From NCBI GenBank assembly GCA_965153355.1, contig OZ231126.1:40114001-40178000 (forward strand): a DNA stretch of 64,000 nucleotides, given 5' to 3'. The stretch comes from Flaccisagitta enflata. Taxonomy: Eukaryota. Positions 18,602 through 58,026 of the stretch are shown here, piece by piece. How positions within the stretch are numbered: the stretch's first letter is position 1; the number at the start of each line of letters is the position of its first letter. The notes beneath the pieces were generated by a model, which saw only the letters and a list, made by a program, of their open reading frames with translations, did not search any database and was not told where the DNA came from. The position numbers were made by a program, and so were the translations under genes.

Positions 18602-18849
18602 CCAAATTTGACGAAGTTGACGAGAAGTTTGGATGCGGCGTCGGAAGCAGATTTGTCCGCCGGCGTCGAATTCCATTCAGGACGTCGAGGAAATGCGAAG
18701 AAGAGCAAAGACGCGTCGACTCCCAAGGATGAGGATGAGGAGGAGGAGGAGGCGGAGGCGGAGGAGGAGGAGGAAGGTCGATAGTTCCAATTGTTGGAGG
18801 AGGAGGAGGAAACGTAACTCGGATGATGACTCAACTCCCAAAGATAAGC
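18602..18849 (-). CDS. Esterase-like exon F: AYLWELSHHPSYV(S)5NNWNYRP(poly-Ser)LGVDASLLFFAFP...KLLVNFVKFG
   Basis: Acceptor tttccctcttttag, donor GG|gtgagt, 248 nt. Equivalents of YxYxFxH and NFAKTG at the two ends; phase-2 intron inside the final Gly codon. Confidence 0.88.
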
Positions 18850-57800: not shown

Positions 57801-58026
57801 ATTCATTCATTCATTCATTCATTCATTTATTCATTCAATCCTTCATTCATTCATTCATTCATTCATTTATCCATACATTCATTCATTCATTCATTCATTC
57901 ATTCACTCATTCTCACCTTAATGGAGAAGCTACATGCAGACAAACGGCGGTTCCGCCGGCTCCTTCGCCGCCAATTGTAATCCTCTTCGCGTCCCCTCCA
58001 AAAGAAGCTGCATTTTCATTCACCCA
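18602..58026 (-). CDS. Partial multi-exon gene: carboxylesterase type-B / cholinesterase-like protein, probably non-catalytic (six exons reconstructed)
   Basis: join(58026-57917,51261-51069,45953-45755,30962-30856,26624-26499,18849-18602). All five introns are GT-AG with matching phases 2,0,1,0,0. The spliced product is colinear with COesterase/neuroligin motifs: WVNENAASFGGDAKRITIGGEGAGG, SPLSRELFTRAISHSGS, VGC...KCLKK, FTPIVDGVFMPESP, VELLVGLN, LKDVIAFEY, FRD...VP...KLHA, AYLWELSH, NFVKFG. Confidence 0.9.
19033..19780. mobile_element. Non-autonomous TIR element with ~150-bp degenerate TIRs (TTAA at left flank; superfamily uncertain)
   Basis: Left GGCATGTTCGCCTATAAGGCATAAAAC...GAAGCTCATCGGTA vs right TACCGATGAGCTTC...GTTTTATGTCTTATAGGCGAGCATGTC. 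Confidence 0.7.
22083..22833. mobile_element. Tc1/mariner-type MITE, ~125-bp TIRs, TA flanks
   Basis: ta|CAGGGTCTTCAATCTCATTTGACAC ... GTGTCAAATGAGATTGAATGCCCTG|ta. Confidence 0.82.
24034..24490 (+). mobile_element. HINE-like family B element with central 20-bp minisatellite
   Basis: 34-bp subterminal inverted repeat GGGCAGCGGCCCCGAAGGGGCCGATGACCTATGC (24039-24072) vs 24376-24409 (1 mismatch); about 11 units of GCCCAAATCCCAGCCTCAAG; ~80-bp asymmetric 3' tail; T-runs at both ends. Confidence 0.7.
25397..25582. repeat. 87-bp tandem repeat, ~2.1 copies
   Basis: GGCAATCTGCCT recurs at 25397, 25484 and 25571; the two full units are nearly identical. Confidence 0.9.
26499..26624 (-). CDS. Esterase-like exon E: GQSGSDVTPTDIASAEKVIFRDVKNLVPSYQIVKLHASHGNK
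   Basis: Acceptor ttttttctcttcttag, donor AAG|gtaaaa, 126 nt, phase 0/0. Aligns with the LFTDHQWVAPAVATAxLHx segment of neuroligin-type proteins. Confidence 0.85.
27386..28093. repeat. Cluster of long (GA)n, (GAAA)n and (GACA)n microsatellites; similar (GA)n/(TG)n(TC)n tracts occur throughout the window
   Basis: (GA)n of ~200 bp at 27666-27872; others at ~9064, 14519, 16668, 20717, 21335, 32634, 33571, 36263, 57180. Confidence 0.95.
28261..28920 (+). repeat. Two ~160-bp direct repeats (28261-28419, 28761-28920), MITE-like, ending GGCTGTA
   Basis: AAATGCCGTTTATAA(G/A)GGTTTTCATTCTATGC...CGTTATTTGGCTGTA occurs twice, 500 bp apart. Confidence 0.8.
30856..30962 (-). CDS. Esterase-like exon D: (G)LPEPSFNGFVSQLLQNTQYQDRNNLKDVIAFEYLQ
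   Basis: Acceptor ttttttcttcattaag, donor CAG|gtgaga, 107 nt, phase 1 in and 0 out. Resembles the neuroligin segment GVSxxxFDxxVSNFVDNLY...LRETIKFMY. Confidence 0.85.
34239..35000. mobile_element. MITE with long (>170 bp) TIRs, TA flanks
   Basis: ta|CACCGTCTTTAGATCGATTTGAAAAAT ... ATTTTTCAATTCGATCTAAAGACGGTG|ta; the arms stay alignable through TTTTCAGTGAACATTGCTAA and beyond. Confidence 0.85.
37570..38500. repeat. Purine-rich low-complexity region: (AAAC)n, (GAAA)n, (AAAGAAAC)n, (GGAAAA)n
   Basis: Direct reading; source of several long F/L/S-rich spurious ORFs. Confidence 0.9.
38524..38709 (-). mobile_element. HINE-like family A, complete copy
   Basis: Reverse complement of the 17013-17240 architecture; very similar to 39142-39326, 39833-40028 and 55242-55433. 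Confidence 0.75.
39142..39326 (-). mobile_element. HINE-like family A, complete copy
   Basis: AACAAGGCCGGATACACGGCTACCGAAGTCGCGTGCGGGTGGGCAGGGGCC...GTCGCGTGCACGCGAC. Confidence 0.75.
39833..40028 (-). mobile_element. HINE-like family A, complete copy
   Basis: Same termini and core as 38524-38709. Confidence 0.75.
41329..42030 (-). mobile_element. Two HINE-like family A copies (41329-41557 and 41862-42030)
   Basis: Each has the AACAAGGCCGGATACAC start, a (GACC/CAAC)n tract and a CGCGACTAAA end. Confidence 0.7.
44485..45023. mobile_element. Foldback MITE, TA flanks, left arm interrupted by a HINE
   Basis: ta|CAGACGGACC...TTTTAGCACCACCCCCTACAGCCCAAA...AAATGGCGCCACCGTGGCGATT vs AATCGCCACGGTGGCGCCATTT...TTTGGGCTGTAGGGGGTGGTGCTAAAA...GGTCTGTCTG|ta. 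Confidence 0.85.
44562..44719 (+). mobile_element. HINE-like family A copy inserted into the left arm of a MITE
   Basis: TTTTAGTCGCGTGCACGCGACT...(GTCC/GGTC)n...CACGCGACTTCGGCTCGTGTATACGGCCTTGTT, interrupting the TIR of 44485-45023. Confidence 0.8.
45755..45953 (-). CDS. Esterase-like exon C: DMISSRLSKSFTPIVDGVFMPESPVNVFRRGFMHNVELLVGLNRHPG...WLRDQ
   Basis: Acceptor ctctctttcag, donor AAG|gtatgt, 199 nt. FxPxVDGxFxPxxP and LLxGxN motifs. Confidence 0.93.
47268..47578. mobile_element. Tc1/mariner-type MITE, ~80-bp TIRs
   Basis: ta|CAGTCAGTGGACAAAACACAATAGGTATA ... TATACCTATTATGTTTTGTCCGTTGACTG|ca. Confidence 0.75.
48078..48270 (+). mobile_element. HINE-like family A copy (further copies at 43266-43489, 50273-50431, 51583-51731)
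   Basis: Same 5' palindrome, (GTCC)n tract and 3' GCCGTGTATCCGGCC. Confidence 0.72.
51069..51261 (-). CDS. Esterase-like exon B: (S)RELFTRAISHSGSC...VGC...RIKCLKKVSVQ
   Basis: Acceptor ctctttcccag, donor CAG|gtatgt, 193 nt. LFxRAIxxSG motif plus the conserved Cys pair of the cholinesterase second disulfide loop. Confidence 0.93.
52265..52426. mobile_element. Short pogo/Tigger-like MITE (related remnants at ~30380-30545 and ~51385-51529)
   Basis: ta|CAGTGGAGCCCCGC ... GCGGGGTCCCACTG|ta. Confidence 0.65.
52485..53044 (-). mobile_element. HINE-like family B element with 20-21-bp minisatellite
   Basis: GTCATCCAAGGATCGCACATGGTCAGCGGTACCCG tail; inverted pair GGGCAGCGGCCCCAAAGGG(C/T)CGATGTCCTGTAGAA; units like GAGGTTTGGAGGGCTGATTT. 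Confidence 0.7.
55242..55433 (+). mobile_element. HINE-like family A, complete copy
   Basis: TTAGTCGCGTGCACGCGACT ... CACGCGACTTCAGTAGCCGTGTATCTGGCCTTGTT. Confidence 0.75.
57917..58026 (-). CDS. Esterase-like exon A (nucleophile elbow): WVNENAASFGGDAKRITIGGEGAGGTAVCLHVASPL
   Basis: Acceptor ttttgttattccag, donor AG|gtgaga, 110 nt. Matches the carboxylesterase motif WVxxNIxxFGGDPxxVTIFGESAGG. Absent from the ORF track. Confidence 0.93.

Follow-up and report, generated by a model that had tools for sequence, protein, structure and literature searches.

The 64,000 nucleotides (nt) analysed here (the window) are positions 40,114,001 to 40,178,000 of contig OZ231126.1 in the Flaccisagitta enflata assembly GCA_965153355.1. 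Their minus strand carries part of a carboxyl/cholinesterase-fold gene whose predicted product appears unable to act as a serine hydrolase. All exon coordinates are those of the whole window, which is AT-rich (40% GC) and very dense in microsatellites. We collected the minus-strand open reading frames (ORFs) from stop to stop with at least 28 residues, removed low complexity with an entropy filter, and scanned the resulting 448 ORFs against Pfam in batches of 150, 150 and 148. Exactly three ORFs, all within the first batch of 150, matched COesterase (PF00135), and their matches were colinear on the profile (positions 168-205, 206-261 and 273-320 of 515). No other recognisable domain was found among these filtered minus-strand ORFs, and the Pfam scan of 150 of the 199 plus-strand ORFs returned low-complexity matches only. 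The Rfam and tRNA searches each gave zero matches, and CpG/GC islands had no discriminating power as exon finders in this genome. The gene model comprises the following features:

57917..58026, minus strand, exon 1: 110 nt, with the nucleophile elbow G-E-G-A-G-G; acceptor ttattccag, donor gtgaga; Pfam E 8.4e-12, 45.2 bits, profile positions 170-204
51069..51261, minus strand, exon 2: 193 nt, with S-x-x-L-F-x-R-A-I-x-x-S-G-S and the Cys...Cys loop of the second disulfide; acceptor ctttcccag, donor gtatgt; Pfam E 1.8e-5, profile positions 208-260
45755..45953, minus strand, exon 3: 199 nt, phase 1 end, F-T-P-I-V-D-G ... L-L-V-G-L-N-R-H-P-G; acceptor ctctttcag, donor gtatgt; Pfam E 9.7e-5, profile positions 278-320
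30856..30962, minus strand, probable exon 4: 107 nt, filling the space from the acid turn to the D-x(5)-P segment; acceptor cattaag, donor gtgaga
26499..26624, minus strand, exon 5: 126 nt, phase 0 to 0, R-D-V-K-N-L-V-P ... H-G-N-K
18602..18849, minus strand, exon 6: 248 nt, phase 2 end, A-Y-L-W-E-L-S-H-H, a Ser-rich insert, then L-G-V-D-A-S-L-L-F-F-A-F-P ... N-F-V-K-F-G; acceptor ctcttttag, donor gtgagt
18726..18774, plus strand, (AGG)16 microsatellite, read on the minus strand as the TCC/Ser run of exon 6; Tandem Repeats Finder period 3, 16.3 copies

A first-pass annotation of this DNA had described an intact spliced gene of six exons with all three catalytic residues replaced. Direct reading bore out its outer limits (exon 1 starting at 58026, exon 6 ending at 18602) and the codons it had named, namely GGA (Gly) at 57961-57963, CCG (Pro) at 45816-45818 and TTG at 18724-18726, the Leu of L-G-V-D. 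A stop-free, in-frame chain of six exons bordered by AG and GT does exist (983 nt, 327 amino acids), our exons 4 and 5 perhaps not being the ones that the annotation had in mind.

That exons 1 to 3 belong to the COesterase family is certain from their sequence. Once trimmed to the exons, the three colinear matches to PF00135 scored 45.2 (cut-off 27), 24.3 and 21.9 bits, and all six splice signals were near consensus, with a strong pyrimidine tract and AG at each acceptor. Joined, the three exons form 167 codons without a stop and reached 149.7 bits, or about 0.9 bit per residue, on our own family profile, which was built from 27 family proteins, all from one exhaustive search. The alignment to this profile crossed both joints without a break and had no gap at the joint of exons 1 and 2. 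The second disulfide loop (G-C ... C-L) is present as well: both cysteines of exon 2 fell on Cys columns of the profile, which are nearly invariant in a family alignment of 22 sequences. Long microsatellites adjoin two of the donors, with (AATG)n over about 200 bp behind exon 1 (57700-57915) and (GTT)n over 104 bp behind exon 2 (50962-51065).

The nucleophile elbow, which is G-x-S-x-G with a catalytic Ser in active enzymes, reads G-E-G-A-G here. Alignment to solved carboxylesterases was gapless (ifGESAGGts in the latter, igGEGAGGta here) and placed the Gly of codon 57961-57963 on the nucleophile, a Ser that is invariant in the 22-sequence alignment; our own profile agreed. The acid turn, N-x-x-E-G with Glu or Asp as catalytic acid, reads N-R-H-P-G, and its alignment to acetylcholinesterase (AChE) was likewise gapless (LVGVNKDEGS against lvglnrhpgp) and in agreement with the profile, so placing Pro (45816-45818) on the acid. 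The replacement of Ser by Gly and of Glu by Pro proposed in the first-pass annotation thus holds in alignments to solved esterases and in the profile alike. With Gly at the nucleophile position no acyl-enzyme can form. The altered elbow counts against an active enzyme and not against the fold.

Beyond exons 1 to 3, no further match was found in the window by tblastn with 150 family proteins, by our own profile over all six frames or by Pfam. Exons 4 and 5 were therefore sought by splice signals and reading phase, and were partly picked for being open and in phase. Probable exon 4 had the top combined splice score of 30 candidates, and its phases fit both the donor of exon 3 and a phase-0 successor. 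Taken alone it gave no match with Pfam or with hhalign, and we call it probable on the strength of its splice sites, its phase and its spacing, without support from homology. Exon 5 aligned to the D-x-x-f-x-C-P ... g-x-x segment of the family, just ahead of the 'vYlYeF' strand, and its acceptor is the strongest in the interval between exons 4 and 6. Among 336 open phase-0 segments bordered by AG and GT in that interval it ranked first by chain score (alternatives: mean 150.0, standard deviation 1.8 bits). On its own it was undetectable, with no Pfam match and hhalign P=0.43. Exon 6 alone gave no PDB match at E<=10, no Pfam COesterase match and 0.1 bit on our own profile. Its last 25 residues fell on the ft..er.Ls..m..yW.nFa.tG helix of the family, at the expected place, in a weak hhalign alignment (P=0.065).

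The complete chain of six exons (327 codons, each listed site being a pyrimidine tract with AG or a GT donor) reached 160.0 bits on our own profile, against 149.7 bits for exons 1 to 3 only. This gain arises because the alignment spans the joint of exons 5 and 6, where the family spacing D-x(5)-P ... Y-x(5)-H is restored exactly. Removal of single exons lowered the score to 152.1 bits (without exon 4), 150.0 bits (without exon 5) and 149.2 bits (without exon 6). When exon 5 or exon 6 was shuffled, 160.0 bits was reached in 0 of 1000 trials each, and with exon 4 shuffled it was reached in 280 of 1000. The sequence comparison thus supports exons 5 and 6 as a pair, together adding 10 bits, and not singly. 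A five-exon chain lacking exon 5 was also open (285 amino acids) but gained 0.3 bit only, and was replaced by the six-exon chain.

We also considered the minus-strand ORF 37373-37173 as the C-P ... Y-x-F-x-x-x-H segment of the family and rejected it, because it breaks the order set by exons 4 and 5 and its acceptor is weak. Its spacing of these residues is exact (6 bits, E 0.9; hhalign P=0.23) and none of 3000 shuffles matched in the expected range, yet about one such match is expected among roughly 2000 ORFs. We judged it a chance resemblance; possibly it is a relic of a duplicated exon.

The third catalytic position would fall within exon 6. This exon has two His only, both in S-H-H at the 'F-x-H' place of the family, which is non-catalytic, and there is no His in the 74 residues of exon 6 that follow. 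The loop between S-H-H and F-F-A-F-P, which bears the catalytic His in active enzymes, is taken up by the Ser run encoded by the (AGG)16 microsatellite. Provided that exon 6 is right, the His is likely to have been lost, although the alignment there is weak. Depending on the alignment, the His column holds Gly (anchored on the Pro of F-x-P), Ala (HMMER, 0.1 bit) or the Leu at 18724-18726 that had been put forward in the first-pass annotation. The 74 residues without His fit its claim that the His is gone; its choice of Leu as the replacement is not established, these alignments being too weak to settle which of the three residues stands in the column.

Could the protein still be an active hydrolase with a shifted or alternative triad? 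The two His of S-H-H, the many Ser of exon 6 and the weak alignment of the His loop leave some room for this. We consider it very improbable, because the gapless elbow puts Gly exactly at the Ser position of a strictly conserved motif and the Pro at the acid turn is aligned just as gaplessly. We know of no way in which a charge relay could be rebuilt in this fold once nucleophile and acid are both lost. The first-pass view of a gene with a cholinesterase/carboxylesterase fold whose product would be unable to work as a serine hydrolase is supported.

An exhaustive protein search with exon 1 returned 742 proteins at E<=0.001, none of them above 69% identity over its 36 residues. The best relatives of the joined exons were an amphioxus 'carboxylesterase 1D-like' protein, unnamed proteins and bacterial proteins of the 'para-nitrobenzyl esterase' type. 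No relative found was closer than catalytic carboxylesterases, at 36-37% identity, and no aligned pair exceeded 37%. Word-index protein searches with exon 3, with exon 1 and with residues 40-83 of exon 6 found no relative, and a metagenome scan with exon 3 found three distant loci only (38-53% identity over 32-48 residues). Several marine metagenome runs share 5-21% of the sampled words of 50800-58100, which says nothing firm on habitat.

Three of the relatives bear closer comparison. The best-scoring one, the amphioxus protein XP_078688416.1 (P0097), has 37% identity over 155 residues of exons 1 to 3, scored 95.2 bits against the six-exon chain and shares the N-x-H-x turn ahead of the acid position. 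It differs in having Ser, Glu and His, and at 37% identity it is not an orthologue. A eukaryotic fragment of 245 residues (P0087) has the identical elbow G-E-G-A-G-G and 36% identity over 167 residues; unlike the window gene it keeps the acid Glu (T-T-H-E-G), and it is also too distant for an orthologue. In the Macrostomum lignano protein UniRef100_A0A1I8G704 (P0015), two of the tandem COesterase domains lack every one of the three catalytic residues, Pro standing for the acid and Leu in the His column, which is the very pattern that the first-pass annotation had proposed. This protein scored 20-32 bits, against 95 bits for the amphioxus protein, and has a tandem multi-domain architecture. Given this distance and architecture, triad loss in the two is convergent.

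Another way to have this fold without the nucleophile would be orthology to a known non-catalytic adhesion molecule (neuroligin, gliotactin, neurotactin or glutactin) or to a thyroglobulin-type ChEL domain. Like the window gene, neuroligins carry Gly in place of the nucleophile, and chains of neuroligin-4 and neuroligin-2 were among the PDB matches. However, they ranked below carboxylesterases and cholinesterases for both exon 1 and exon 3: exon 1 scored 33.8 bits with a CES2-type enzyme, 30.5 bits with AChE and 27.8 bits with NLGN4, and exon 3 scored 24.2 bits with AChE and 18.5 bits with NLGN2. Neuroligins moreover keep the Glu and the His of the triad, whereas the window gene has Pro at the acid position and appears to lack the His. 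Among named relatives the nearest is the amphioxus 'carboxylesterase 1D-like' protein, and all 12 of the nearest tree neighbours are Ser/Glu/His enzymes. We regard such orthology as improbable, and the first-pass statement that this is not a canonical neuroligin stands.

The tree was built with FastTree from 132 domains picked by their similarity to exon 1 and without named reference families, so that it cannot assign a subfamily. The placement of the gene in it is unsupported (0.27). Its terminal branch measures 1.88 against a median of 0.64, at the 98th percentile among the 132 tips. The Ser/Glu/His neighbours, together with the catalytic best relatives at 36-37% identity, fit a secondary loss of the triad within an esterase lineage. 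The first-pass annotation had proposed a lineage-specific pseudoenzyme; the lack of a close orthologue and the 98th-percentile branch would fit a lineage-restricted, fast-evolving paralogue, which makes this part of the proposal reasonable.

The suggestion that a fully degenerate triad would be unusual is not supported by our counts. Among 268 sampled family domains, 38 had no Ser in the nucleophile column and seven had all three positions replaced, the two Macrostomum lignano domains being among these seven, and the literature describes many inactive members. According to one report, the family includes catalytically inactive members, with salmon-louse proteins of several clades lacking triad residues (PMC8387733). 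A second report counts neuroligins, glutactin, gliotactin, neurotactin and the thyroglobulin domain among the non-catalytic members (PMC5943944). A dead carboxylesterase paralogue is a well-known kind of gene, and catalytic loss is common in this family.

The closest parallels are the inactive alpha-esterases of the silkworm and the salmon-louse members of clades O and E. As described in two reports, these likewise have the PF00135 fold with at least one triad residue replaced. They evolve fast and are confined to their lineages, and either no function is assigned to them or one in sequestration or binding is suspected (PMC2784812, PMC8387733). The arthropod proteins nest in catalytic clades, and the nearest relatives of the window gene are likewise catalytic esterases. 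In contrast to them, the window gene appears to have lost all three positions and has a poly-Ser insert in the His loop. The adhesion proteins named above and the thyroglobulin ChEL domain show the same fold without a functional triad, used as an adhesion, matrix or chaperone module (PMC5943944).

Taken together, our results are best explained by a non-hydrolytic gene of the carboxyl/cholinesterase fold, probably a lineage-restricted, fast-evolving paralogue of catalytic carboxylesterases with a putative non-enzymatic binding or scaffolding role. Several observations weigh against this. The part of the gene seen in the window covers about two thirds of the domain, from about position 168 to about position 500 of the 515 in the family profile. 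The N-terminal third (profile 1-167, with the oxyanion hole and the first disulfide) was not found in 58027-64000, and the end of the domain was not found either when an exon after 18602 was sought from 98 acceptors (best gain 4.6 bits). Exons 4, 5 and 6 were each undetectable alone, and the choice of the 3' exons leaned partly on openness and phase. The runner-up to exon 5 gave a chain of 158.3 bits, just 1.7 below 160.0. No close orthologue appeared in any search, and the very long terminal branch fits decay as well. Since both ends of the gene are absent from the window, the gene is incomplete there and cannot be claimed as 'intact'; with exon 4 also lacking homology support, that word in the first-pass annotation was an overstatement.

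Candidates for both ends were tried and rejected. Upstream of exon 1 we tried 18 donors, and the best gain, 6.3 bits at 61435, came from a (GAT)n-like tract, where the donor is weak and the frame meets a stop 22 codons further upstream. Downstream of exon 6, the Pfam scan of the minus strand in 1-22066 gave no match. As exon 7 we considered G-P-A-N-P-E-K, which is read at 16002 and, in a duplicate, at 13878; the gain of 3.5-3.6 bits was not significant. Both lie behind strong acceptors on the minus strand, in the phase left by exon 6, and both stop after 24 codons. The reading resembles the G-x-P-N turn of the family, and could be a short terminal exon or a chance resemblance. The duplication itself reflects a segment of about 2.1 kb that occurs twice in tandem in 12600-16830. 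The two copies have near-identical ORFs (14317-14153 and 16441-16277; 14005-13751 and 16129-15875), and each has an (AAC)n array of about 550-600 bp (13076-13680; 15251-15804) along with (GA)n and (GACC)n tracts.

The observations just gathered would also fit an unprocessed pseudogene or a decaying partial duplicate, in which exons 1 to 3 are a remnant and the 3' half is drifting sequence from which open, in-phase pieces can be selected. At least two and perhaps all three catalytic residues have gone, the exons of the C-terminal half cannot be detected singly, exon 6 contains an expanded triplet microsatellite, neither N-terminal nor terminal exons were found in the window, the gene has a long branch of poorly supported placement (0.27), and no relative exceeds 37% identity among aligned pairs. 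The silkworm offers a precedent: in the report on its esterases, expression evidence is given for 11 of 15 triad-mutated alpha-esterases, two are suspected pseudogenes, and those both triad-mutated and unexpressed are flagged as likely pseudogenes (PMC2784812). Decay of this kind is difficult to reconcile with the 167 open codons of exons 1 to 3, their approximately 0.9 bit per residue and their six near-consensus splice signals. It would also have to account for the pairing of exons 5 and 6, which restores the D-x(5)-P ... Y-x-x-x-x-x-H spacing across their joint as no shuffle did in 1000 trials. Moreover, decay sufficient to blur or erase the 3' half should have damaged exons 1 to 3 too, and these, with their splice signals, are clean and near the family consensus. 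For this reason we favour a functional gene as the probable explanation, and hold a pseudogene to be a distinctly less likely one that still deserves to be taken seriously.

In the best explanation, the core scaffold of the fold is kept while its chemistry has been given up. The strand, elbow and helix at the nucleophile, the S-G-S segment, the Cys-Cys loop, F-x-P-x-V-D-G and the acid turn are all retained, and further on so are the segment D-x(5)-P and the helix N-F-x-K-x-G. Gly stands for Ser and Pro for Glu, and the His loop appears to hold a microsatellite-coded, Ser-rich insert without His. Its most likely origin is from catalytic carboxylesterases, as a paralogue that is restricted to its lineage and evolves fast. 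If the gene is expressed, its product would by analogy with other dead members of the family most likely be a non-enzymatic binding or scaffolding protein, acting in ligand sequestration, adhesion or matrix.

A more specific version of this, which we put forward tentatively and think unlikely to hold in full, is an expressed, lineage-restricted pseudoenzyme that descends from a catalytic carboxylesterase and whose catalytic His loop was the site of the triplet microsatellite expansion. Through such an expansion, a long, flexible, Ser-rich loop, possibly glycosylated or phosphorylated, may have formed where the former active-site gorge had its mouth. If so, a microsatellite would have driven the remodelling of a dead enzyme into a binding protein, here in the repeat-rich genome of a marine animal.

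Loss of catalysis recurs in the carboxyl/cholinesterase family, and important adhesion and matrix proteins are among its dead members. As a new and strongly diverged member from a little-sampled marine animal, the window gene is one more case by which to judge how frequent and how complete triad loss is. Its poly-Ser insert in the His loop neatly illustrates a microsatellite that is coding. The finding opens no new question. For annotation, the value of our analysis lies in a concrete six-exon model, with the caution that the gene is incomplete in the window and that we only infer its expression.

The window contains seven repeats of at least 100 nt, and the introns are packed with microsatellites and with a dispersed repeat family. 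Copies of the latter lie on the minus strand at 43310-43074, 41605-41351, 40021-39824, 39366-39115, 38733-38540 and 35254-34982 and in the region of 59662. They had no tRNA or Rfam match, and their translations share C-P-P-A-R-D-[WF]-G-S-R-V-S-G-L-V and V-G-R-[SL]-V-G-W-[SL]-V.

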